Shown: in pieces, positions 2,182 to 15,074 of the stretch
How the letters are laid out: each line of letters starts with the position of its first letter
Numbering within the stretch: the stretch's first letter is position 1
Sequence record: MG589383
DNA: 64,000 nt
Strand: one strand, 5' to 3'
From: Shigella phage phi25-307
Program-made: the position numbers and the translations under genes
Notes under the pieces: model-generated
Seen by the model: only the letters and a program-made list of their open reading frames with translations
Told to the model about the DNA's origin: nothing
Database searches by the model: none

Positions 2182-2523
2182 TTAAAAGAATTTAAATTTT
2201 TTCTTGGTCCGTTCATTAAAAGCTTGTTGTACTTGCATTGTAACACATTTTTCAACATGTGGTGCAAGTTCTGCTTTTCTGTCCTGGTCAAGAACTGCAA
2301 AGTCCATTACGATTTTACCATCAACCCAGTCTAGTTTTGTAATATAGACTATATGATGAGAACCATCTTCAAGTGTAATCAGAATCTCTTGAATGACATT
2401 TTCCATTGCTGAACGGATAATTTTAAGAGATTCATTAAACACTCGTTCTTTGCGAATGTCTTCCCCTTCCGAAGAAGGGGAGTCATCAACGATTTCTAGA
2501 TTTAAATCATTGAGATTATTCAT
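2182..2523 (-). CDS. 40: gp40-like protein (by position between uvsX and 41)
   Basis: small ORF directly after uvsX stop; ATG at 2523; positional homology only. Confidence 0.5.
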   Translation of the reverse strand: MNNLNDLNLEIVDDSPSSEGEDIRKERVFNESLKIIRSAMENVIQEILITLEDGSHHIVYITKLDWVDGKIVMDFAVLDQDRKAELAPHVEKCVTMQVQQAFNERTKKKFKFF

Positions 2524-3688
2524 CGAAATCTTCCATTTCGTCAAGGTCGTTTTCTATATCTGCTGCAGACGGAGCATCAGAAGTTTTAACCGGAACTTTA
2601 GTTGTTGCTTTGCAATTAATAAGGTCGTTAACAGCGTCATCAACTTCTTTAATAGAAGAGATAGCACCTAGTTTATATTTAGTTTCAATTGCATCTCGGA
2701 AAGGTTTGTGTTTAAACAACGGCCCCCAGAATTCTACACAATCAGTAGCTTTAGCACGCCATGATTTCTCTTCACGAATCATTTCGCCCGTTTCTTCGTC
2801 AAGGAATTCTCGAGCATACCAACCAGCTTTAGGCTTAACCACAAAACCAATTTCAGTTGCCATTTCTAACAAGCCACTGAATGGGTCGATACCACCATCG
2901 AAATTAACCGTGATTGGGAAAGTAGATTTCTCTTTAACTGTACGAGATTTTTCTGCTTTCAACGTGAAGTCATAACCGGTCAATTCTGTACCTTCTTTAA
3001 CCTGACGTTTAGAGATAAAGAATACGGTGTTAGCAGAGTAAAGAATACCTGTACCACCACCCATAATCTCTTTAGGATACAATCCGCCGATTTCCATTGC
3101 TGTATGGTTGATTGCAACACATGGAATATCTTTAATAGTCAGATAAGGAGTCACAATGCGGAACAGAGATTTAAGTGCCTTAGCACGAGACATATCACCT
3201 ACAACTTTCTCGTTCAACGCATCTTCGGTTTCTTTCTTAGATGCAGTATTACCGATTGAATCGATAAAGATAATAACTTTATCACCGCGTTCAATCGCGT
3301 CAAGCTGATTAGTCATATCAACTTTAAGTTGTTCGACAGATTGAATCGGAGTATGAACTACACGGTCTAAATCAACACCCATTGAACGAAAATAAGATTC
3401 TGAAGCACCAAATTCTGAATCATAGAACAAACAAATTGCATCTTTATATTTCTTCATATATGCTGCAACCATGGTCAGCCCAAACAACGTTTTAAAGTGT
3501 TTAGAAGGAGCAGCAAAAATAGTTAAGCCTGATTGCAACCCGGCATTCAGTGCACCACCTAATGCAATATTCAACATCGGAATACGAGTAGGGACTTCAT
3601 CGCGATTATTAAACAGCTTAGACTTAGTCAAGTCTGCAGTCATTTTAGAAGTAGAAGCTTTAATCAGACGAGATTTTAAATCAGACAT
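2516..3688 (-). CDS. uvsX: UvsX recombinase (RecA/Rad51 family)
   Basis: 390 aa; MSDLKSRLIKASTSK... N-terminus and acidic C-terminal tail as in T4 UvsX. Confidence 0.95.
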   Translation of the reverse strand: MSDLKSRLIKASTSKMTADLTKSKLFNNRDEVPTRIPMLNIALGGALNAGLQSGLTIFAAPSKHFKTLFGLTMVAAYMKKYKDAICLFYDSEFGASESYFRSMGVDLDRVVHTPIQSVEQLKVDMTNQLDAIERGDKVIIFIDSIGNTASKKETEDALNEKVVGDMSRAKALKSLFRIVTPYLTIKDIPCVAINHTAMEIGGLYPKEIMGGGTGILYSANTVFFISKRQVKEGTELTGYDFTLKAEKSRTVKEKSTFPITVNFDGGIDPFSGLLEMATEIGFVVKPKAGWYAREFLDEETGEMIREEKSWRAKATDCVEFWGPLFKHKPFRDAIETKYKLGAISSIKEVDDAVNDLINCKATTKVPVKTSDAPSAADIENDLDEMEDFDE

Positions 3689-3743
3689 TGTATTTTTTCC
3701 ATAGGCATCATTATATTTTACTCATGTTTAAAAGATAAGACGA

Positions 3744-3770
3744 TTATATACTAAGGGTTATACAGCATTT
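3744..3770 (-). promoter_or_regulatory. middle (MotA-type) promoter candidate upstream of uvsX
   Basis: minus strand AAATGCTGTA (Mot-box-like) - 12 nt - TATAAT. Confidence 0.35.
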
Positions 3771-3788
3771 AAAACTTTAAACAGGCTC

Positions 3789-4337
3789 TTAACGAGCCCA
3801 TTTGATAATTTCTGTAATCAAATAATTACGTTCGCTTGCATTAAATCCTATAACTTTGTTAGCACCGTCATGATTAAGTAATTGATACGTTTGGATTTTG
3901 TTATGAATTGCAAACTCTTCAAAATATGAAATGACTGTATTAAAACCGAATGAAGACAAAGTAATAAGATCGTCTTCAAAACTTTCAGTCATTTCGTTAC
4001 GTGTTAAAATAATTGTGAACACATCATGGTTTTGGCAAAGACGAACATAATCCTGTTCATAAACGTCAAGAACCGAGTCCGCATCTTGTCGAATACGTCC
4101 ATAAACCCAGTTACTAATATATCCACGGTCTAACAGATAAATCTTAGTAGGGTCTAAATAATTCAACATCGTTTCGAAACAGCCAACTTCATTTCGAGAC
4201 TTAACATCGAAACGTCCATTAACTGTTCGTTTAGGGAAATCAATCTTTACATATCTTTCACTAATTTCCATTATGTCATTAATGAAAGTTGTTTTACCAG
4301 CATTATCCGGGCCATCTACTAAAATAATTTTAGCCAT
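3789..4337 (-). CDS. P-loop kinase-like protein (nucleoside/nucleotide kinase fold)
   Basis: Walker A VDGPDNAGKTT near N-terminus; 182 aa; sits at the T4 bgt locus. Confidence 0.6.
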   Translation of the reverse strand: MAKIILVDGPDNAGKTTFINDIMEISERYVKIDFPKRTVNGRFDVKSRNEVGCFETMLNYLDPTKIYLLDRGYISNWVYGRIRQDADSVLDVYEQDYVRLCQNHDVFTIILTRNEMTESFEDDLITLSSFGFNTVISYFEEFAIHNKIQTYQLLNHDGANKVIGFNASERNYLITEIIKWAR

Positions 4338-4338
4338 T

Positions 4339-5238
4339 TTATTCCTCGATTACGACATCTTCGTATTTAGGTATATTATACGGTGAAGAAATTAAAGCAT
4401 TAAAGTAGATGAACTCACCAAGACCTGGATGGAATACTTCTTCAGGATTTTCGAAATATTGAATCTTCGGTCGTCCTTTAAGAATTTGATAGTACTCAGT
4501 TTTAGTTGGTTTAAAAATTCGAATCAGCGCTTCTTCAGGATACTTATTTCTGTCGAAGCTATTATTTGGATCGGTTATATAAAGCGGTTGACCTAATTGA
4601 ATTGCACATTCAACCACTTGTTCAAAACGATAGCACGGGTCACTAATTCGAAATGGATGAAAAATACCATCTAGATGAATAGGAGCCAAATCACCTACAA
4701 GACGCTGCATGATGGAAGGACGTATAACTTTCTGGGTTACGATAATCTTATTACCATCGGCACCAGCGTTAACCAGCACTTCCTTTTGACGTTTATTCAA
4801 CACAGTAGTTTGAAGTGAACGATTAACCGACAACATATCGGTTTTTAAGAATTCGTCAATATAAAAACGTGGTTTATTAGGGTCTGCAGTGATATTGAAA
4901 TTGAATTCCACATCAAAAGCGCCGTCATATCCAGTGATATCTGTGATTAGAAAATCACAATCATAATAAGCAATTAATGAATCAACCACAAATTCATTTT
5001 CAGACCAGAAATATTTACGAGTGTTATACGCGTTATCTTTATACCATAATGGAACAAACTTAAATTCTGGGAAAAGACGTTCACATTCTTTAATATCAGA
5101 TGCATTACGTGGATATGTAATCACATCACCCGGATTAGCACGGTGCAAATGAAGTTGGAAGTTGCCATCCTTAAGGATAGCGTACTGTCCAGTTTCATAA
5201 GACCGCATACTCAAGATAGGTACGCGGAAAATAGCCAT
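4339..5238 (-). CDS. hypothetical protein at bgt locus; candidate DNA sugar transferase
   Basis: 299 aa ORF; start overlaps gene 42 stop as TAATG; no known motif, function inferred from position only. Confidence 0.55.
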   Translation of the reverse strand: MAIFRVPILSMRSYETGQYAILKDGNFQLHLHRANPGDVITYPRNASDIKECERLFPEFKFVPLWYKDNAYNTRKYFWSENEFVVDSLIAYYDCDFLITDITGYDGAFDVEFNFNITADPNKPRFYIDEFLKTDMLSVNRSLQTTVLNKRQKEVLVNAGADGNKIIVTQKVIRPSIMQRLVGDLAPIHLDGIFHPFRISDPCYRFEQVVECAIQLGQPLYITDPNNSFDRNKYPEEALIRIFKPTKTEYYQILKGRPKIQYFENPEEVFHPGLGEFIYFNALISSPYNIPKYEDVVIEE

Positions 5239-5954
5239 TAGTCAAGGAATCCTTTAACATAATCAAAATCACGTTCAAACACATGGGCACTTACCATGGT
5301 ATGAGTATAATCACCAACTTCTACACCGCATTCGTTAGCGATATAATGAAGTAATTTTCCTTGGAGATAAAAATCCAACTGCATAACAACAGCACAGTTC
5401 TGAGAACGCATATGACAGTGGGTATAAAGCTTACCATCACGAATATAATAAGTCACTGAGTCAGTACATGGATATTCAAGCGTTTCGTCTGAATCAAGCA
5501 AAGCCTGATCAGAACTTTCTAGAATTTGGAACACAACTCTTCGAGAGTTAGGCTTCTCTTTAAGTTCTTTTAGAAGAGCTGGTAATTGGGCCACAATGCG
5601 AGGACCATAGAAAGTGTTGAAGTTCGCCGGCAAAACATCTGATTTTGGTTTAGAAATAAATTTAGCGACATTAGGATATGCCTTAAACGCTTCTTCTGCG
5701 TTGGTACCACCAGAAATCATAAACTTCCAGAAGTCTTCGGCATATTCATAAGAGATGCGGTTAATACGTGGGTCGGTCATTTTGAATGTTGACGGGGTAT
5801 CAACAACTACTGTCATAGACCCAATTTCATTACAACGTCCAATACGAGAATCAGTTACGAATTCCGGGTTTTCTAAAATTTCACGATTGACTGCTTTAAA
5901 TGCGGTTTGAAAATCTGCGGCTTTGATATATTTCATTGTGTTATGTTTTCCCAT
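5238..5954 (-). CDS. 42: dCMP hydroxymethylase (thymidylate synthase superfamily)
   Basis: 238 aa; C-T-D-S-V-x-Y-Y-IRDGK...MRSQN...HVF pattern matches T4 gp42 catalytic region; RBS GAGGTAAAC. Confidence 0.8.
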   Translation of the reverse strand: MGKHNTMKYIKAADFQTAFKAVNREILENPEFVTDSRIGRCNEIGSMTVVVDTPSTFKMTDPRINRISYEYAEDFWKFMISGGTNAEEAFKAYPNVAKFISKPKSDVLPANFNTFYGPRIVAQLPALLKELKEKPNSRRVVFQILESSDQALLDSDETLEYPCTDSVTYYIRDGKLYTHCHMRSQNCAVVMQLDFYLQGKLLHYIANECGVEVGDYTHTMVSAHVFERDFDYVKGFLD

Positions 5955-5973
5955 GTTTACCTCAATACAATTT

Positions 5974-5998
5974 ATTATATACTCAATTCGTAAAGCTT
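5974..5998 (-). promoter_or_regulatory. middle (MotA-type) promoter candidate upstream of gene 42
   Basis: minus strand AAGCTTTAC - 11 nt - TATAAT. Confidence 0.35.
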
Positions 5999-6233
5999 AT
6001 TTGAATTTCTTGACAATGTTGATATAACGTAAAGCTTCAGCATCGATACTTCCAAGAACACTATGAAGAAATGCATCAGCGTAGTATTCCAATTGAACAG
6101 GTTTCTTTAATCACTTTAGCCGCTTTAGTTTCAAACAGGCCCATCAGGGCCTTTTTAAGAATTTGTTCATTAGTGTTCAGTTTCATAGTCAAAATCTCTT
6201 CATTAAGTTGGTGGTTAAAAGTTTTTCTAGAAA

Positions 6234-7394
6234 TCATTCCGGGTACCTCAAAGCGTCATCAGAGTTAGTTATATCAATAATAGATATAGAGTTTTCTGCT
6301 AACCCATTTTTAGATAACTGACGTTTATAATATCTTTCACAATATGTACACGTCGTCCCGCAGATTTCATTAGCACAATCGAAATCTGGATGTCTGAACC
6401 ACCTTTTTTCTAAAAAGCCATCTAACAAAGAGGTTTCAATATTTACTGTATGTGAAAACTCAGTTTCATTTTCAAGAGTGAAAATAGTCTCTAAAGGCTT
6501 CCACAGTTCTAACAAATTACCTTCAAACTTTTCAGAAGCGTATGCTTCAAGAACTTTCAAAATGTAGTCTGTGCTACCTGTACGTCCTGAAACTTTGAAT
6601 TGAGTGATACCAATATCATTATAAAGTTTCAAATCTTGAGGACGAACAAAACGAGTTCTCAGCCAGTTAAATGGGTCTGTATCACGAGCTTTAATGCAGT
6701 GTTGCATTGGATATCCATTTAAGGATTTAGCATCATCAGCTGTAACATCAGTACTATGGAAAATATAGCAAGAGTCACGATAGCTACAATGTGTTGTATA
6801 CCCTTTACCAGCATTAGAACAGAACTCATTTACAAGAACTTCAAATATTATATTGTTCTTATTGCAAAACTCTGCTGCACGCTTCAGGAAAGAAACTGAA
6901 CGGTTCTTATGAATTCCACAGCAGACCTTTTTGATATTATACTGGTCATGCAAGTATTTGATTTGAGTTACAGCATCGACATGTAGAATTGTTGAAACTT
7001 CAATCTCAATGTCTTTATTGACTTCACGAACAATTTCCATAACAACAGGGTTAGCGATAGTAATACGCCATACGCCTATTGACCAAAGATACTGAACATA
7101 ATCCTGAATAGCTTTCTTCTTCCACTCAACTAGTTCTCTTTTTGAACCAGGATTTATCGTGTTGAGTGTATAGTTAAAGCAAATACCTAATTCGTTACAA
7201 CGTTTAACGTAATCTTCTAACATCTTTTTGTCAACGTCAGGAAGCCTAAAATCAGGTCTGGCTGCTACAAAAGCCATTTCTCTTGTAGAGCCGTATACTT
7301 CGTTTATCAAGCTATTAGGATAAGTTTTATTGAGCTCTACGATTTTATCAAGAAGAGCTAAATCAAAATTCGTTCCGATTTTAAAAGTATTCAT
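6234..7394 (-). CDS. hypothetical Cys-rich protein (386 aa) at imm locus
   Basis: long ORF; C-terminal cysteine cluster CANEICGTTCTYC; possible metal or Fe-S binding enzyme. Confidence 0.6.
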   Translation of the reverse strand: MNTFKIGTNFDLALLDKIVELNKTYPNSLINEVYGSTREMAFVAARPDFRLPDVDKKMLEDYVKRCNELGICFNYTLNTINPGSKRELVEWKKKAIQDYVQYLWSIGVWRITIANPVVMEIVREVNKDIEIEVSTILHVDAVTQIKYLHDQYNIKKVCCGIHKNRSVSFLKRAAEFCNKNNIIFEVLVNEFCSNAGKGYTTHCSYRDSCYIFHSTDVTADDAKSLNGYPMQHCIKARDTDPFNWLRTRFVRPQDLKLYNDIGITQFKVSGRTGSTDYILKVLEAYASEKFEGNLLELWKPLETIFTLENETEFSHTVNIETSLLDGFLEKRWFRHPDFDCANEICGTTCTYCERYYKRQLSKNGLAENSISIIDITNSDDALRYPE

Positions 7395-7453
7395 TTTTTA
7401 CATCTCGCGTTAATTGATGCGATGGTTTTTTTTTGCAGGTCTTACTTAAATTA

Positions 7454-7840
7454 TTATAGATTCGGTTTATATGATTTAAATGTTTCGAATTCGCCTTTAT
7501 TCATAAGAGCTTTGAATTCGTCAGGACGCATAGCTTTGTCGTCGATAATCCAATCATATACTGGTTTATGTGTTAGCAAATTATGGTACTTCAATCCAAT
7601 GTTTGCCAAGTTCTGAATCAGACTTGGGAGAATGTCAATTGCTATACGACCAGGACCTACTGACTTCATACCGCGAGCAGTGTAAAGCGTTATGGTATGC
7701 CCTGCATCATACAGGGCATTAATGGCAGACACCATTTCGACGTCTGGTTTGAAGTTCACGTAATCACGATTGTTATTCCACTCTGTTATACAATCATCGA
7801 CATCAAAACAAAGATTAAGCATGTTTTTTACACGGTGCAT
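7454..7840 (-). CDS. HAD-superfamily phosphatase-like protein
   Basis: FDVDDC (DxD nucleophile motif), LYTARG, conserved K, WIIDDK; ATG overlaps upstream stop as TAATG. Confidence 0.55.
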   Translation of the reverse strand: MHRVKNMLNLCFDVDDCITEWNNNRDYVNFKPDVEMVSAINALYDAGHTITLYTARGMKSVGPGRIAIDILPSLIQNLANIGLKYHNLLTHKPVYDWIIDDKAMRPDEFKALMNKGEFETFKSYKPNL

Positions 7841-9525
7841 TAGATTCGTTCCCATTGATGAGTGATATCGCCACCGATTGGACGATAAGAAACACCAGTT
7901 TCTTTATCAGTTAGTACCCATTTACCAGGATTTTTTGTAATCAGAGTAGCCGTTACAGGTTCTGCTACATCATAACTAATAGTGCCGTCCTGAAGTACAC
8001 GGCCCATATTACGTAATTGCTTAGTCAGAAGTTCCATACCTTTATAATATGCGGCTACCGCTTTAAGTGGATTATTCTTGAAATAACCACCTAATGCAAT
8101 CCAGATAATTGCTACAGCCAAATGATGATACTCATTAAACGAACTCATCTTTCCATATTTGTAAACTAATGGATTGATGTTAATAGTCACATTACAAGTT
8201 GTTTCATCAATAGTAAACTGTCCCCAGGTCGGATTAGCATTGAATTCATCATAACCTGAAACAGCATAAAGCACTTTAGCTTCATCATACAATTTTGGCC
8301 CGTAAATCTTGGTTTCACCAAAATATCCACGAGGGTCGATAAACTTGACTTCACCATTATCAGTAATCATAGTATTACTGAAGTTTGGGTCACCATGAAT
8401 AACAGAGTACTGTCCCTGAGAACGGTTATGATAACGAATAAGGTGTTCTAAAGCTTGTTTCAGCATTGGCTTCAGACGCCCAATCTTAGTGTAGTTCACA
8501 TGTGTGATTTTACCGAATGAATCAATCAATGGTTGAATACTTTCACAACGATCAATAACTTTCGTATAGAACTCTTTAGTGAAATCACGGCGAACAGTTT
8601 CAGGACTTACAAAATAAGTGTCTGTGCTGAATTTCAGTGCATCTAAAATTGCATCAACAATTTGTGGACGAGCAAGACTTGATTTGGATTTAATATATTC
8701 AAATGCCGGCTTACCTTTAATGCGTTCCATTTCAAAGTTATTTTCATTAACAGAAACTAACTGAGGAACTGAATCTGATTTCACTTTAAGATACCATGAA
8801 ATCTCATCTTTCTGAAGAGCTCGACCCTGTTCGGTTAATGCGAATTTAGTTACAGTTTCTTCACCAATTTCAACTGCATTAAAACTACGATTAAGTTCAC
8901 GAACTTCATGAGCTTTTTCAAGTTTAGGCATATCACCTAAATCAATTAGATTCATAAGCTCTGATTTATTGAATGCGCTGCCGTAAAGGAATTCTACGAA
9001 ATCACGTCCTTTGCAGTATTCATGAATTTCCTCATCAGTAGAACCCATATAGAATTCCCAGTCTTTGAACTGATAAATTCCTACAACATTACCACCTGTT
9101 GAACCTACATTAGTGATATTTTCACCGTCGAAATTATATCGACATTCGTCACCCTTAACATAGATTGCGTTAACATTCCAAGACCATGAACCAAAATCAG
9201 GAATAATATCACACCAGTTAACAATTACATTATGGCCGTCTAAATCTTTGTGTAATTTAGCAAGAGCATAAGCAGAACCATACGCTTCATCAACTGTACG
9301 AATAGTCACATTGAACCCTTCTTGCTCACAATAAGCTCGAACAGTTTCAGCAAATTTTGAATGAACTACTACAATAATTTCATCTGCACCAAGGTCAGAA
9401 TAAATTGTATACAAATTGCTCAGAATAGTGTCTTGTTTATAGTTAACAAGCACCTTAGGAATATGATGTGTTATTGGATACAAACGAGTTGCCAGTCCAG
9501 CACCAAGAATAACAGCTTTTTTCAT
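7840..9525 (-). CDS. bifunctional sugar-1-phosphate nucleotidyltransferase / sugar kinase
   Basis: N-terminus ILGAGLATRLYPIT..IPK (GxGTRLxPxT NTase signature); C-terminus HGDPNFSNTMI...FIDPRG (APH/choline-kinase Brenner motif). Confidence 0.85.
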   Translation of the reverse strand: MKKAVILGAGLATRLYPITHHIPKVLVNYKQDTILSNLYTIYSDLGADEIIVVVHSKFAETVRAYCEQEGFNVTIRTVDEAYGSAYALAKLHKDLDGHNVIVNWCDIIPDFGSWSWNVNAIYVKGDECRYNFDGENITNVGSTGGNVVGIYQFKDWEFYMGSTDEEIHEYCKGRDFVEFLYGSAFNKSELMNLIDLGDMPKLEKAHEVRELNRSFNAVEIGEETVTKFALTEQGRALQKDEISWYLKVKSDSVPQLVSVNENNFEMERIKGKPAFEYIKSKSSLARPQIVDAILDALKFSTDTYFVSPETVRRDFTKEFYTKVIDRCESIQPLIDSFGKITHVNYTKIGRLKPMLKQALEHLIRYHNRSQGQYSVIHGDPNFSNTMITDNGEVKFIDPRGYFGETKIYGPKLYDEAKVLYAVSGYDEFNANPTWGQFTIDETTCNVTININPLVYKYGKMSSFNEYHHLAVAIIWIALGGYFKNNPLKAVAAYYKGMELLTKQLRNMGRVLQDGTISYDVAEPVTATLITKNPGKWVLTDKETGVSYRPIGGDITHQWERI

Positions 9526-9706
9526 GTTGTGGTCCTCATTGGTAAGTAGGAGTATTGTACACTATTCTAGTTAAAGCATTCATACTTTGCTTGTAGTCCA
9601 ATCATAATCCATCCAATTACAAGTGTTGGAATCATTACCGGAGCCGTTAAGCTCCAGTAGATAGTCATGACAAGCATCAATAGTAAAAGTCCTATTGTTA
9701 TTGCTT

Positions 9707-10342
9707 TCATTGTTCGCCTCGTAACATGGCACCTAGTGCACCGCCAGGGTGGAACTTAAGGAAGTCATTAGAGGTAAATCCACGTTCAGACGAAAGGTTG
9801 ATAGCAAACGTATCGATAAGCGCTAACAACAATGTAGTGGACATAGTCGGAGCCAGAGAATTCTCATCAACCTCTACTGCGATGCCTGTACAGAAAGAGT
9901 AATCAAAAAGGGCTTCATTTTCTTGTGGAATGTCTGGGTTACAATGCAACAGAATCTGTTTGACGTTCGGACGAATCATTTTAAGATGCTTAGCCACACC
10001 TATCATTTCTTCAGTTTTACCAGAACGACTAATATGAATCAACACATCATTAGGCGCAATGAATCCTGCATCACCGTGAGAATAATGCCCGGTGTTCAAG
10101 TACATACTCGGGATACCGAGTGAAGCAAATGTCTCAGAAGCTTTAGTTGCAATATTAGCATTCTTACCAACACCTGTAATAATTACTCGGCTTTCATAAT
10201 TACTAAGTCCCGGACGTCGAAGAGTTTCTAGAATAGCATTATAACGAGCAGGGTTTTGACTAATTACTTTGGCCATAGCGGCCAAAGAAGAAGATTGTTT
10301 TATGATTGCGTCAATAGCGATAGTAATAGGAGTAGTTTTCAT
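9707..10342 (-). CDS. SIS-domain arabinose-5-phosphate isomerase (KdsD/GutQ family)
   Basis: ITGVGKNANIATKASETFASLGIPS...HGDAG...ISRSGKTEE...HPGGALG aligns to KdsD SIS core. Confidence 0.85.
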   Translation of the reverse strand: MKTTPITIAIDAIIKQSSSLAAMAKVISQNPARYNAILETLRRPGLSNYESRVIITGVGKNANIATKASETFASLGIPSMYLNTGHYSHGDAGFIAPNDVLIHISRSGKTEEMIGVAKHLKMIRPNVKQILLHCNPDIPQENEALFDYSFCTGIAVEVDENSLAPTMSTTLLLALIDTFAINLSSERGFTSNDFLKFHPGGALGAMLRGEQ

Positions 10343-10382
10343 ATTTCTCTCATTTAATTAGTTTACCGTCCATGTCATTATA

Positions 10383-13094
10383 TCAAAAATCGAACATATC
10401 GAACAGAGATGCTTTCTTCTCGTAATCGAGTTTCGCTGCTGATGTGAATCCTTCAAGTGGTTTAATAAATGTCTTCTCAAGGAGAACAGTGTAGTCCATC
10501 CAATGAAGTACGTCGTCTTTAATTAAATCTGTGATTTCAGTACCAGAAGGCCATGCGATACATTTATCACCGAATGGGTTTCCTTCACGTAAAGGCAGAA
10601 CATATACTTTTTCACCTTCTACAACTTGTGGTGCATCGATATTACCTTTGATAGCACGGTTATACGTCAGAATTCCACGAATATGGAACGGGCATTTGGG
10701 ACCAGGGAATCCACCTACATCGTATTTAGCAATGTTATTCGCAGAAGATACCGACGCGATGCTAATATAATTCAATTGACGGAATTCTTTTTCAAACTCT
10801 TTAAAATATTCTTGTAATGATTCTTCACCTTCTTGAAGCATACGACGAATACATTCTTTAAGAGCTTTCTGTACTGCTTTAGGAGTCGAAGATTTCTGAG
10901 TCTCTAGACCCATGATTTTGAGTTTAGGCTCAGCGTAACGAGTACCTTCCATATCCCATACGTTTAATGCATAACGTTTCTTACCAGTCCAGAATCCACC
11001 AATACCTTTAGAACCAAGTGGAGGCCCAGCGATAGCTTCTCGGTCCATGAACATTAAGTGTTGTTTATTGTTCATGTATTCACACATTTCACGGAAACCT
11101 CTATCAATAGCTGGTTCCATACGTTCACGTGCAAACTTATCTAAGAAGTCTACCCAATGGTTGGTATCACGGAATTTAGATTCACCAACCTTATCGATAA
11201 TTTTATCAGCAGATACGTAAATAGAGTCTGTATCACCATAAAGAACGAAAGCTTCACCTTCTGTACCGCAAACTTCATTCAGATATTCATTAACTTTACG
11301 TTCAATCCACTGTAAAGCCATTTGTCCGAATGTTGTGATTGCAGTAGCATTACGCAAATCATAATAACGGAACCAAACGTTGCCAAGTGCACCATAAAGT
11401 GAGTTGATAAGCAATTTACGGTTAATTTGGGCAGTCATACCTGCAACTTCAGTACGTTGAGCTCTAAACAACATTTCATTAAGAGATTTAGCAGACAACT
11501 TTTTAATCTTTTCTTTAATCTCATCGCTGAAGTCGAAACGATAATCAACATCTAATGGTTCGTCAACAGAAAGATTAGGATTATGCAATGCCTCTTTAAT
11601 TATTTCACCATTACGTTGAGCTGCAAGCATGTAACCTTTATGTTCTTTACGTTGATTAAAGACCTTAGTGATTTCAGTTGGAACTACACCATCACGGTCT
11701 TTATAATACATCATGCCGTTAGGAGAACAACTGTACACATCAGAAGGACGTTCAGCAACAGCGTTAATATAATCATGCAATGGAGCTACTTTAAACGTTC
11801 CTGCTATTGTTTCTGGGCTAATATTCACTTGGCGAATAATACTTGGATACAGAGATGTAAGGTCGAAACTCATTACATATTTGTATCGATTTGGAATAGG
11901 TTCCTTAACAAAAGCGCCAGGATAAGGTTGAACCGGGTGAGAACGACCTTGTGGAATCACCTTGTTCTGCTCTTTAAGGCTATTAAAAATAATAGCATCC
12001 CATGTTTTAATTGGGCTAAATACAGATTGAATCTGAATTTTAGCATAATAACCCATGTCCAAACTCAAGTTGATGAACTGACGCTTAGCATCAATTTGCA
12101 ATACACGATACACATCGATAATGTTATAAGAAATATATCGTTGGTGATTGCTTTCACGAAGCTTAGAAATAGGGCCGTCATATTTCAGTTTACCAACGTT
12201 CAATTCAAATTCTGAAATGTAATCCAGAGAATATGACGGTTGATTGGTAAAAGAGAATTTTTTGTAAAGGTCAATGTAATCAAGAACAGAGATACCGAAC
12301 AATGTAATGATTTCACGAGAACCATACATGTTTTCGATAACTTTAACACGAGTTTTACGATGTGGTGATAAACGTTTCGCAGTAGATTCGCCAAAAATAT
12401 TCTTGATTCGGTTATACACATACGGAATATCAAATGACTCAACGTTCCATCCAGTCAAAATGACAGGAGTTTTCTGTTGCCAGAAGTTGAGATATTCCAT
12501 CAACAATTCTTTTTCGTTATCGAACGGCATATAAATGATTTTATCGATAATTTCGGATGGAACTTCATCACCACCTTGTTCTTGAAGCTTAGCCGCAATT
12601 TCGATAGACCATTCTTCTACATTACCATATGGAGAATTCAATAGATCAAATACGTAGAACCTGTCGTCAATTGAGTCATAATGGGTGATAGCATCAATCG
12701 GATGTTTTGCTTGTGAAGGCTCAGGGAACCCATCCGGAGATGTTACTTCGATGTCGAAGTTAGCCGCACGAATTTTTGTATGGTCGTATTTGATTTCATA
12801 GTTATAAGTGTCAGACAAATACGCCAATTTGAAATCGTCCATGCCAAGTGCTTCAAGACCGATATCTTCCATGCGTTTAATCCATTGGGAGGCATCACGC
12901 ATATTAGCGAACAACTTACGAGTACACGGCTTACCGTAGATATCGAAATATTTCGTAGCCTGACTTTCCGGACAATGAGCAAACAGTGATGGTTTATATT
13001 CTACTTCACGAGTACGTTCACGGCCGTTAGAATCGATGTAACGTTCAAAAATTGAATCACCAATCTGTTCAACCGTTAAGTAAAATTCTTTCAT
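10383..13094 (-). CDS. 43: DNA polymerase gp43 (family B)
   Basis: 903 aa; exo motifs FDIEV, NIIDVYRVL; YGDTDS polymerase motif; matches recalled RB69 gp43. Confidence 0.97.
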   Translation of the reverse strand: MKEFYLTVEQIGDSIFERYIDSNGRERTREVEYKPSLFAHCPESQATKYFDIYGKPCTRKLFANMRDASQWIKRMEDIGLEALGMDDFKLAYLSDTYNYEIKYDHTKIRAANFDIEVTSPDGFPEPSQAKHPIDAITHYDSIDDRFYVFDLLNSPYGNVEEWSIEIAAKLQEQGGDEVPSEIIDKIIYMPFDNEKELLMEYLNFWQQKTPVILTGWNVESFDIPYVYNRIKNIFGESTAKRLSPHRKTRVKVIENMYGSREIITLFGISVLDYIDLYKKFSFTNQPSYSLDYISEFELNVGKLKYDGPISKLRESNHQRYISYNIIDVYRVLQIDAKRQFINLSLDMGYYAKIQIQSVFSPIKTWDAIIFNSLKEQNKVIPQGRSHPVQPYPGAFVKEPIPNRYKYVMSFDLTSLYPSIIRQVNISPETIAGTFKVAPLHDYINAVAERPSDVYSCSPNGMMYYKDRDGVVPTEITKVFNQRKEHKGYMLAAQRNGEIIKEALHNPNLSVDEPLDVDYRFDFSDEIKEKIKKLSAKSLNEMLFRAQRTEVAGMTAQINRKLLINSLYGALGNVWFRYYDLRNATAITTFGQMALQWIERKVNEYLNEVCGTEGEAFVLYGDTDSIYVSADKIIDKVGESKFRDTNHWVDFLDKFARERMEPAIDRGFREMCEYMNNKQHLMFMDREAIAGPPLGSKGIGGFWTGKKRYALNVWDMEGTRYAEPKLKIMGLETQKSSTPKAVQKALKECIRRMLQEGEESLQEYFKEFEKEFRQLNYISIASVSSANNIAKYDVGGFPGPKCPFHIRGILTYNRAIKGNIDAPQVVEGEKVYVLPLREGNPFGDKCIAWPSGTEITDLIKDDVLHWMDYTVLLEKTFIKPLEGFTSAAKLDYEKKASLFDMFDF

Positions 13095-13106
13095 TTAATT
13101 TCCTTT

Positions 13107-13122
13107 AGACGAGTTATTGTCT
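13107..13122 (-). promoter_or_regulatory. gene 43 translational operator hairpin (stem AGAC/GUCU, loop AAUAACUC)
   Basis: minus strand AGAC-AATAACTC-GTCT then AAAGGAAATTAA-ATG; loop identical to the known T4 gp43 operator loop. Confidence 0.6.
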
Positions 13123-13150
13123 TTTGTTTGTTGATGAACTTATTATACTC

Positions 13151-13168
13151 CAAATGGGACCGAAGTCC
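13151..13168 (-). terminator. hairpin ATGGGAC-UUCG-GUCCCAU between regA and 43 (terminator or RNA-stability element)
   Basis: 7 bp stem with UUCG tetraloop on minus strand; weak U-tract. Confidence 0.4.
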
Positions 13169-13175
13169 CATTGCT

Positions 13176-13544
13176 TTAATTACCAATTGTATATTTTGCT
13201 TTCAAAGTCCAGTCATCTTTCTGTTTAAAAGAGATAACACGGAAGTTATTAGTCAGGCCAAACAGATCTTCACGAGCAGAGTCTTCAATAACAATCAATC
13301 CCCATTCTTCAAGCAACTGGGCAATCGAATCACGTCGCTGATAGTCTTCACCGTCAATATCAACCTGACGTCCATCCATACGCAACATTTCTTTAAAGTG
13401 GACGATATAGTACTTACCTTGCTTTTGGAGGATATGACAAGACTGGTAAAGGACTTTATCCTTGTTATTAGCGATGCCCATACGAGTCAGAGTCTCTTTG
13501 ACTTTCAGAAAATCTTCAGGGTTCTTCAATTTAATTTCAATCAT
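13176..13544 (-). CDS. regA: RegA translational repressor
   Basis: MIEIKLKNPEDFLKVKETLTRMGIANNKDKVLYQSCHIL... matches T4 RegA; ATG at 13544. Confidence 0.85.
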   Translation of the reverse strand: MIEIKLKNPEDFLKVKETLTRMGIANNKDKVLYQSCHILQKQGKYYIVHFKEMLRMDGRQVDIDGEDYQRRDSIAQLLEEWGLIVIEDSAREDLFGLTNNFRVISFKQKDDWTLKAKYTIGN

Positions 13545-13546
13545 TT

Positions 13547-14110
13547 TTACCATTCCAATGCTAATTTTTTAAATTGTTTTTGTTCTTTCACATTTTTTGT
13601 AACTTCTTTGAGAAACTCATCAGTGACCATGGCCTTCAGTTCTTTAAGGACTATTGGCAACTTGTTATTTTTTTCAAGGAGCCGCTTATACTCAGTAGCA
13701 TCATTCATGTTGATTGTGTAATGTTTCATCAACAGTTTGATAACTAGTAACTCTGAAGTGTCTTCGACTAGTTTAGCCCATTTAGAGAATCGACGACCAC
13801 GCGGAATTGCCGCCATCATATAGTTGAAGTGCGCTTCATCACTTAATTCAGAACCGACTAAGTTCATCATGTAAACAGCTGGCATACATTCTGGGAACTG
13901 GGATAATGAGTTCTCAACCATAAATTTTGAGTAGTCGACCTGAGCAATTGACATAGATTTCTTTTCATTAATAGCATTAATGATTTTAAAGAATTCATTC
14001 TCAGGTTTTTCTTTAAACATATCAGCACATTTTTGAATCGCATCGGCGTCATTAGACTTCCATGCAATTTGGTGCTCGTTAAGCTGGACGTCATCATCGA
14101 ATAAGTTCAT
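13547..14110 (-). CDS. 62: gp62 clamp-loader small subunit
   Basis: 187 aa, position between regA and 44. Confidence 0.8.
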
Positions 14111-14111
14111 A

Positions 14112-15074
14112 TTATTTCCAAGTTAGTTCGCAGGTCAGTTGAAGAAGCATATACATAACATGTAATTCAATATTACTTGCTAATCCATGAAACTTATTGT
14201 TTTCGCCTGCAATTTCATAAAGCGAAATAATACTTTTACCAGGTGCAACTTGGTCATAACATTCTGAAACTAATTTATCGATGAACCATGAATAATCTGC
14301 GGCATATTTTGGAGCTAATGCACGAAGCTGTTTGATATCTTTGTTCTTCATTGCTTCGATGACATCAGAGACTGTGCCACGGTCGTTAGTTACGATAGAC
14401 AAAATACCCGCATCAAGAACACCTTTAGACGAGTACTGGTCTAATTGACCAATTGTACGACGAAAGTCCGGGAAGTTCTTTTTAACCAGAGCTGCAACAA
14501 CTTTCATATCAGCGATTTCGATATTTTCGTTCTTACAGATTTCAACCATACGATGAATCATTTTCTTCATCATCGAGATTTTATCTTCTTCCGTTGGACG
14601 TCCGAATTCGATAACTCGACAACGACTACGTAATGGTTCAATAATTCCATCGATGTTGTTAGCAGTAATAATAATAGAACAGTTACTAGAGAATTCTTCC
14701 ATAAACGTACGAAGGTGACGTTGTGATTCGGCGAGGCCACTACGGTCAAATTCATCGATAACAATAACTTTTGGCTTGCCTTCCATTGAGACTGAACGAG
14801 CAAATGCAGTTAACGGACCACGCACAAAATCAATTTTACAATCGGAACCGTTGACGAACATCATTTCGGCATTGATATCATTACATAATGCTTTTGCTAC
14901 GGTTGTTTTACCTGTACCCGGAGAAGGAGAGTGCAAAATAATATGAGGAAGTTTTCCTTTAGATACTAAAGACTTGAATGTTTCATGGTCATACGCAGGC
15001 AGAATACATTCGTCAATGGAAGAAGGACGATATTTCTGTTCTAGAATGTGTTCTTTGGGATTGATAGTAATCAT
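14112..15074 (-). CDS. 44: gp44 clamp-loader ATPase (RFC-like AAA+)
   Basis: 320 aa; Walker [10 protein letters not shown]; Walker B VIVIDEFD; SRC motif. Confidence 0.9.

Follow-up and report, generated by a model that had tools for sequence, protein, structure and literature searches.

Shigella phage phi25-307 (sequence record MG589383) carries, within the stretch of 64,000 nucleotides that was analysed here (the window), a run of minus-strand genes between the uvsX open reading frame (ORF; 2516-3688) and the DNA polymerase ORF (10383-13094). This run very probably represents the core of an arabinosyl-5-hydroxycytosine DNA hypermodification cluster of an RB69-like Mosigvirus, an explanation that includes the roles of its individual genes. 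Judged by DNA identity, the window is that of an RB69-like Mosigvirus with about 98% identity: the region 3700-10400 is 97.9-98.7% identical to RB69, JS09 and ST0 (also to the relatives JQD51 and others), 150 phage records span at least 80% of it, and the genes between uvsX and the DNA polymerase match RB69 gp45-gp55 one to one. Three of the ORFs, with 182 (3789-4337), 299 (4339-5238) and 386 (6234-7394) amino acids (aa), were recovered on the minus strand exactly where a preliminary description of this DNA had placed them. It had considered them as candidates for the arabinosyltransferase and as unique to this cluster. They are indeed absent from T4, but homologues of the 299-aa protein were counted by tblastn in 347 and those of the 386-aa protein in 220 phage records, besides many metagenomic contigs. 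Which neighbour of “gene 42” is the arabinosyltransferase has largely been settled, as a prediction, in the literature of 2025-2026, and our assignment of the 299-aa protein was thus already known. The part still worth pursuing is the unexplained gene of the 386-aa protein, a member of the U32 family.

The modified base had been assumed to be 5-hydroxymethylcytosine (hmC) and the ORF at 5238-5954 (minus strand) to be gene 42, and both labels have to be replaced. The base is 5-hydroxycytosine (PMC13326640), and the DNA of RB69 contains its mono- and di-arabinosylated forms with an ether link straight to C5 (PMC13326640; PMC13390438). RB69 gp48, a thymidylate-synthase homologue with bound flavin, makes 5-hydroxy-deoxycytidine monophosphate (5hodCMP) with oxygen from 18O2 (PMC13326640; also PMC13390438). 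The 238-aa product at the gene 42 position is likewise a thymidylate-synthase homologue (Pfam Thymidylat_synt, E 1.2e-15) and near-identical to the proteins of PDB entries 9iqc, 9ir2 and 9iqu (E 7e-160). With the activity transferred from these near-identical proteins, it is an enzyme that hydroxylates deoxycytidine monophosphate (dCMP) at C5 with flavin and O2.

In the proposed pathway, the thymidylate-synthase homologue would convert dCMP into 5hodCMP with O2 and flavin, while an isomerase, a 561-aa bifunctional enzyme and a HAD phosphatase would provide UDP-arabinofuranose (UDP-Araf) from ribulose-5-phosphate. The 299-aa GT-B enzyme may then move the first, alpha-linked arabinofuranose from UDP-Araf onto O5 of the base, and the second sugar would be added by a gp3-type GT-B enzyme encoded outside the window. 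The 182-aa kinase may feed the modified nucleotide into the pool of deoxynucleoside triphosphates (dNTPs). An alternative hydroxylation, in which the U32 protein with iron-sulfur (Fe-S) clusters and prephenate would make the 5-hydroxypyrimidine without O2, stands at about even chances.

The 386-aa protein (6234-7394, minus strand; RB69 gp50 orthologue) belongs to the U32 family by sequence and by fold, with a match to Pfam Peptidase_U32 (E 7.3e-11) and a TIM barrel in the structural model. It is Cys-rich, as the preliminary description had noted, with 13 cysteines (3.4%), nine of which are invariant in 55 of 55 homologous sequences (C158, C192, C203, C209, C233 and C340-x4-C345-x3-C349-x2-C352). 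The conserved cysteines suggest that it is likely an iron-sulfur enzyme. Well-studied members of the family act in anaerobic hydroxylations: UbiU and UbiV are needed for that of ubiquinone, with prephenate as oxygen donor, RlhA, which 5-hydroxycytidine 2501 of 23S rRNA requires, relies on the synthesis of prephenate, on Fe-S biogenesis and on four cysteines, and TrhP, which depends on prephenate, has the O2-dependent TrhO as its counterpart in the formation of 5-hydroxyuridine (ho5U) in tRNA (PMC10990095, PMC5727448, PMC6599085). When the profile of the phage U32 proteins was aligned with the four Escherichia coli paralogues by hhalign, RlhA gave the best result (probability 86%, E 4.8e-6, 205 columns including the Cys region), the matches to TrhP (2.5e-3) and UbiU (8e-3) were weak and partial, and UbiV gave none. 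In the alignment with RlhA, the phage residues C203 and C209 fall on the first two cysteines of its motif CX6CX15CX3C. A profile search of the PDB with the U32 protein returned nothing but a spurious match to BIM1.

The phage protein accordingly shares with RlhA, TrhP and UbiU-UbiV the U32 core, the TIM barrel and a Cys cluster in the homologous region that is partly aligned with that of RlhA, and the likeness extends to a genomic link with prephenate supply and an association with anoxic niches. RlhA moreover converts C to 5-hydroxy-C, the same chemical change as is proposed for the phage enzyme. The relationship is nevertheless remote (E 5e-6 to RlhA), the NCBIfam UbiU match lies far under its cutoff, the spacing of the cysteines differs, and the phage family has an additional invariant CX4CX3CX2C at its C-terminus. 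With 386 aa compared to 653 aa in RlhA, it is devoid of the long C-terminal (RNA-binding) extension, and in contrast to the cellular U32 proteins it is phage-borne and located within gene clusters for deoxynucleotides and DNA glycosylation. We propose, with the balance standing about level, that the phage U32 protein is a hydroxylase that depends on prephenate instead of O2 and forms the same 5-hydroxypyrimidine where O2 is lacking.

Evidence for a link to prephenate comes from the gene neighbourhood. A chorismate mutase above the gathering score of Pfam CM_2 adjoins the U32 gene in Kanagawavirus Entb_45, Mosugukvirus PM2, Tegunavirus TG1, Bragavirus Pm5461 and Shewanella phage Thanatos-1. In Thanatos-1 the U32 gene sits after the kinase gene and not before that of the thymidylate-synthase homologue, and the chorismate mutase gene has moved along. 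The gene after U32 in a metagenomic locus (L016) encodes a DAHP synthase (NCBIfam, E 2.6e-70 versus 2.9e-17 for KDO8P synthase). The presence of a chorismate mutase or DAHP synthase gene beside U32 in six independent lineages points to the use of prephenate. This neighbourhood, in five phage genera and one metagenomic phage, is new here, as are the pairing of U32 with the transferase on contigs from anaerobes and the lack of U32 in the inspected Acinetobacter and Pseudomonas phages with this cluster. A literature search found no paper linking U32 to phage hydroxycytosine, and among the matches listed for chorismate mutase or prephenate in RB69 and Mosigvirus there were only unrelated papers. 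Lee et al. cite RNA hydroxylation pathways solely as ones that do not use thymidylate-synthase-type homologues (PMC13326640).

The U32 protein is the most conserved of the cluster across genera, with 83-87% identity (thymidylate-synthase homologue 77-84%, transferase 51-68%, kinase 41-72%). The same 220 records of cultured phages were retrieved with the window protein and with a 55%-identical metagenomic homologue as query, and Enterobacterales or Shewanella are the hosts of all U32 carriers among the matches listed. Acinetobacter is absent from this tally of names, 57 Acinetobacter phages carry the transferase, and no U32 gene was found in the Acinetobacter and Pseudomonas clusters inspected. 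A strict rule that couples U32 to the aerobiosis of the host fails, since Dhakaviruses of E. coli carry the cluster without U32; the link is imperfect.

Metagenomic U32 homologues with 40-58% identity are abundant. The scan of a collection of species-representative genomes yielded 13 U32 loci, all of them in genomes or metagenome-assembled genomes. To judge by their names (Erysipelotrichales, Oscillospiraceae, Gastranaerophilaceae, Romboutsia, Tannerella, Phocaeicola faecalis, colon Clostridia, Angelakisella, Woesearchaeota, BRC1 and Planctomycetota), most of the lineages are those of the gut or of other anaerobes. The neighbours of U32 in loci that are not T4-like are genes of replication and of nucleotide metabolism, which encode DNA Pol III alpha, UDG, SSB, dCMP deaminase, thymidylate kinase, dNK, NT5C and dUTPase. 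In 10 of 21 distinct non-T4-like loci the U32 gene adjoins, and often overlaps, a homologue of the 299-aa transferase gene; these homologues were detected by tblastn (1e-8 to 1e-16) and hhalign (99.7% probability, E 4e-27) and keep the family motifs. A thymidylate-kinase-like kinase is present in L017 and L023-L026, and homologues of AfhE and of the arabinose-5-phosphate isomerase in L016, L031 and L032. Within the +-7-10 kb that were inspected on the metagenomic contigs, none of the transferase-U32 loci has a ThyA-type thymidylate-synthase homologue (L023 has ThyX, Pfam Thy1). The pairing of U32 and transferase without this homologue indicates that the core of transferase plus kinase can be accompanied by one or the other of two unrelated candidate hydroxylases, and both are often present in T4-like phages of facultative anaerobes.

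Some of these loci show further peculiarities. In the metagenomic phage locus L017, a gene for a TET-associated glycosyltransferase (Pfam TAGT, 4e-8) comes after U32, near those of a UDP-galactopyranose mutase and a dUTPase/DCD protein (8098-9000, 12073-13179); neither a TET nor a thymidylate-synthase homologue was found in the inspected region, and the gene set hints at a galactofuranosylated hydroxypyrimidine. A radical-SAM/SPASM protein recurs near U32 (L007 1-249, L018 1-628, L024 7980-9011, L026 7972-9000, L008 12160-13185), and its gene lies between kinase and transferase in L024 and L026; it may represent a second Fe-S enzyme of the module. L008 contains two divergent U32 genes (8001-9098 and 13227-14360; 48% and 22% identity to the window protein) among genes for NT5C, dNK, a nucleoside 2-deoxyribosyltransferase and radical-SAM proteins, possibly a pair of the UbiU/UbiV type.

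Several observations weigh against a role of U32 in base hydroxylation. RB69 gp48 alone suffices for 5-hydroxydeoxycytidine (5hodC) in aerobic E. coli (PMC13326640), and U32 is therefore not required under these conditions. The core spacing of the cysteines (C-x10-C-x5-C-x23-C) is unlike the canonical U32 motif. Chorismate mutase is missing in Klebsiella phage Potts1 and in Mosigviruses, whose hosts make prephenate themselves, and the small gp49-type ORF next to U32 in Mosigvirus encodes no chorismate mutase. The limited range of the contig inspection also has to be borne in mind for the missing thymidylate-synthase homologue. It is possible, albeit doubtful, that the U32 protein is unrelated to base hydroxylation and instead reduces a sugar or heterocycle, acts as a peptidase of the collagenase type, or hydroxylates RNA of the host or the phage (for instance tRNA ho5U or rRNA 5-hydroxycytidine). 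In Table 1 of Lee et al., gp50 bears the name “sugar or heterocycle reductase” (PMC13326640), database records name the protein “peptidase” or “collagenase-like protease”, and U32 stands among sugar-activation genes in L016, L031 and L032; the sufficiency of gp48 and the lack of U32 in the Dhakavirus JS98 fit this explanation as well. Yet a protease mechanism that would be relevant here is not established for any member of U32, and the characterised ones are tied to O2-independent hydroxylations that require prephenate (PMC10990095, PMC5727448). The module of L023-L026 consists of kinase, transferase and U32 without sugar-activation genes, U32 is accompanied by dCMP deaminase in L007 and L014 and by thymidylate kinase in L007 and L018, and its linkage to chorismate mutase or DAHP synthase likewise speaks against such functions. 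A role in RNA hydroxylation is additionally at odds with the missing C-terminal region of RlhA.

The 299-aa protein (4339-5238, minus strand) is the intact orthologue of RB69 gp46:47 and predicted to be the first, base-proximal arabinofuranosyltransferase on 5-hydroxycytosine, based on its fold, its synteny and the published prediction. Its gene is coupled to that of the hydroxylase by the TAATG overlap that had been pointed out: the gene-42-like ORF ends with ...GAC TAA, a stop codon that overlaps the start ATG of the 299-aa ORF, whose own stop codon TAA is separated by one base from the ATG of the 182-aa ORF. The absence of a glycosyltransferase signature that is recognisable by eye was borne out, since the protein has no match in Pfam and NCBIfam (E <= 0.1), its PHROG (3891) is of unknown function, a profile search against PDB sequences gave nothing relevant, and none of the 137 homologues returned by a search is named or has a Pfam domain. 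The remote-homology searches that had been recommended thus came back empty, but structure prediction was informative. The AlphaFold2 model, computed from an alignment of 58 homologues (mean pLDDT 95.5, pTM 0.90), exhibits two Rossmann-like alpha/beta domains with an inter-domain cleft, which is the GT-B architecture. According to this model, the protein would be a compact and unusually small GT-B glycosyltransferase of ordinary fold. The alignment contains the invariant motifs SMRSYETG, DGN, PFRxSD, TDPN and HPG, and the C-terminal half harbors the invariant R197, D200, K246 and H270-P-G as well as the conserved E275, candidate positions for the binding of a nucleotide sugar, in which basic residues would serve the diphosphate and an acidic one the ribose.

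The T4 beta- and alpha-glucosyltransferases act on hmC-containing DNA, and the 299-aa protein is not an orthologue of T4 bgt, to which no homology was detected beyond the shared superfamily. It is only 7-12% identical to the retaining GT-B enzymes of the GT4 type (sucrose-phosphate synthase 6kih, BshA 6n1x, PimA 2gej) and, unlike these, has no match to Pfam Glycos_transf_1, but a PHROG and invariant motifs of its own. Its closest known counterparts are RB69 gp46:47, DLP3 gp79 and Thanatos TH1_063, the predicted arabinosyltransferase 1 of the pathway to arabinosyl-5-hydroxycytosine. Lee et al. (NAR 2026, PMC13326640) named RB69 gp46:47 “arabinosyltransferase 1” and ascribed its split in the reference record to a sequencing error. 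In this record (NC_004928.1; L002) the genes of the transferase (ORF046c/047c) and of the bifunctional enzyme (ORF052c/053c) are both divided, whereas their counterparts in the window (4339-5238 and 7840-9525) are intact, which is consistent with the sequencing errors noted by these authors (PMC13326640). Three points count against the assignment: the DLP3 transferases, when tested singly, were inactive on DNA containing 5-hydroxycytosine (5hoC-DNA; PMC13326640), in vitro, Thanatos TH1_063 has reportedly the activity of a UDP-xylose pyrophosphorylase (PMC12838424), and arabinosyl transfer by this family remains a prediction in the literature searched.

The neighbouring 182-aa protein (3789-4337, minus strand; RB69 gp45 orthologue) is, as had been recognised, a P-loop protein (VDGPDNAGKTT) and also has a DR motif (LLDRGY). 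It matches PHROG 761 “thymidylate kinase” (1.3e-44) but not Pfam Thymidylate_kin, and reaches 15.7 bits in the NCBIfam dTMP kinase model with a cutoff of 83; structure-based matches to thymidylate kinases (TMPK) come from Lee et al. only (PMC13326640). Its sequence suggests a thymidylate-kinase-like nucleotide kinase that shares the P-loop and DR motif with the TMPK family, falls below the Pfam and NCBIfam thresholds, and presumably acts on 5-hydroxy- or 5-glycosyloxy-dCMP instead of dTMP. A kinase of this type was present at varying positions in every cluster examined. The T4-type deoxynucleoside monophosphate (dNMP) kinase of RB69 already phosphorylates 5hodCMP (PMC13326640), from which it follows that the 182-aa kinase is either redundant or acts on another substrate, possibly the arabinosylated nucleotide.

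The latter option leads to a rather unlikely scenario, in which the 299-aa transferase acts prior to replication and converts 5hodCMP into arabinosyl-5hodCMP, the kinase phosphorylates the product, and the polymerase incorporates a glycosylated dNTP. The contiguous and translationally coupled genes of hydroxylase, transferase and kinase would fit such a sequence of events. To our knowledge, the characterised phage base glycosylations all take place on DNA, as those by the T4 alpha- and beta-glucosyltransferases, which counts against it. The trio of genes also recurs in unrelated phages and in RL38J1 (PMC13326640), and the kinase accompanies the transferase family although the T4-type dNMP kinase handles 5hodCMP. 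The inactivity of the DLP3 enzymes on 5hoC-DNA would be in agreement with transfer to the mononucleotide, and Lee et al. state that they cannot distinguish whether the first sugar is added at the mononucleotide or the DNA level (PMC13326640). However, later arabinose additions have been shown on DNA (PMC13326640), and the kinase might be nothing more than one dedicated to 5hodCMP.

A reversed order, with the first arabinose added by the GT4-like gp3-type enzyme and the second by the 299-aa protein, is improbable. The proposal of Thomas et al. 2018 had been that ORF003c is the arabinosyltransferase, and the gp3-type enzyme of HY126 has a structure (9iqz); ORF003c is now regarded as the second transferase (PMC13326640). 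No gp3-type gene is located in the window, and BLASTP revealed no similarity between this type and the 299-aa protein. The mono-arabinosylated Thanatos carries only the 299-aa type, which is the argument of Lee et al. for the first transferase (PMC13326640), and this type is universally syntenic with the hydroxylase, in contrast to the gp3 type located elsewhere, and occurs together with U32 in phages from anaerobes. It is less probable still that the 299-aa protein is a UDP-pentose pyrophosphorylase and not a transferase, as the formation of UDP-xylose by TH1_063, a 47%-identical orthologue, would imply (PMC12838424). This activity is hard to reconcile with a fold that is GT-B and not that of a nucleotidyltransferase, and with the 561-aa protein the cluster already has a bona fide NTP-transferase domain. 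The strongest version of the preliminary description, a transferase of novel fold that might be the 386-aa or the 182-aa protein, had nothing but gene position in its favour and can be dismissed at the level of folds: the 299-aa candidate was well chosen but its model is a conventional GT-B, the 386-aa protein is a U32 TIM barrel and neither a transferase nor a protease of evident relevance, and the 182-aa protein looks thymidylate-kinase-like.

The remaining genes of the run, all on the minus strand, provide the activated sugar. The 133-aa HAD-type phosphatase (7454-7855; RB69 gp51 / HY126 AfhF type, PHROG 1238; NCBIfam capsule-biosynthesis phosphatase 4e-13, under cutoff) would convert arabinose-1,5-bisphosphate into arabinose-1-phosphate, a reaction for which Lee et al. 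cite He et al. (PMC13326640). The intact 561-aa protein (7840-9525; RB69 gp52:53 / HY126 AfhE type) is a bifunctional sugar kinase / UDP-arabinose pyrophosphorylase with a Pfam NTP_transferase domain (8.5e-10) and weak matches to Pfam kinase families at residues 308-409. The 211-aa SIS-domain protein (9707-10342; RB69 gp55 orthologue) is an arabinose-5-phosphate isomerase (Pfam SIS 1.1e-10, PHROG 5670, NCBIfam KpsF/KdsD at 2e-32 and 7e-31). For near-identical proteins, the conversion of ribulose-5-phosphate into UDP-Araf by isomerase, bifunctional enzyme and phosphatase has been reported (PMC13326640). The phage isomerase is missing from the clusters of JS98 (L004), which is also devoid of U32, Klebsiella phage Potts1 (L010) and Proteus phage Pm5461 (L013), which presumably use KdsD/GutQ of the host. 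Between the genes of isomerase and bifunctional enzyme lies a small ORF of 50 aa with a GTG start (9580-9732, minus strand), whose position equals that of RB69 ORF054c and of small hypothetical genes in PM2 and TG1. In Escherichia phage NRG-P0074 (L001 5591-6352) a homing endonuclease gene that the window does not have separates phosphatase and bifunctional enzyme. The latter is named “dCMP deaminase” in this record, and other records name the HAD phosphatase “phosphoheptose isomerase”; both look like misannotations. Promoter and terminator sites in 3600-10500 were no more numerous than in shuffled sequence.

The small ORF that is translationally coupled to U32 (6076-6237, minus strand; 53 aa) is of the RB69 gp49 type (PHROG 8601). 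The annotation of Entb_45 had raised the suspicion that this type is a chorismate mutase, but the intact RB69 form has no Pfam match and 15% identity to phage chorismate mutases, and PM2 and TG1 carry both genes side by side, which documents two ORF families. One extra A near 6104 (AAAGAAACC compared with AAAGAACC in RB69 and NRG-P0074) shortens the window ORF from 79 to 53 aa; the intact form would end near 5997, and the insertion may reflect a genuine frameshift or an error of sequencing.

These phages have bacteria of the gut as hosts and replace their cytosine completely, although O2 is strictly required by the published hydroxylase. A second, O2-independent hydroxylase would resolve this tension, and the hypothesis is specific and readily testable. 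In RB69-like phages, U32 would back up the O2/flavin enzyme and allow full cytosine replacement in the anoxic gut, whereas phages of strict anaerobes would have it as their one hydroxylase, which would feed glycosyltransferases of the 299-aa type. In some phages, a chorismate mutase or DAHP synthase of their own would boost the supply of the oxygen donor. The proposed parallel is the pairs of aerobic and anaerobic hydroxylases in E. coli (UbiI/H/F versus UbiU/V, TrhO versus TrhP), which would correspond to the gp48 type and U32. The Cys-rich U32 proteins may, on a wholly even judgement, found a phage-borne subfamily of pyrimidine C5 hydroxylases that act on deoxynucleotides, possibly on DNA, as a backup in RB69-like phages and as sole hydroxylase in those of strict anaerobes. 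If this is true, DNA with glycosylated hydroxypyrimidines would extend to phages of strict anaerobes, and the U32 field, in which hydroxylation in vitro had up to 2024 been shown for no protein (PMC10990095), would gain a soluble small-molecule substrate.

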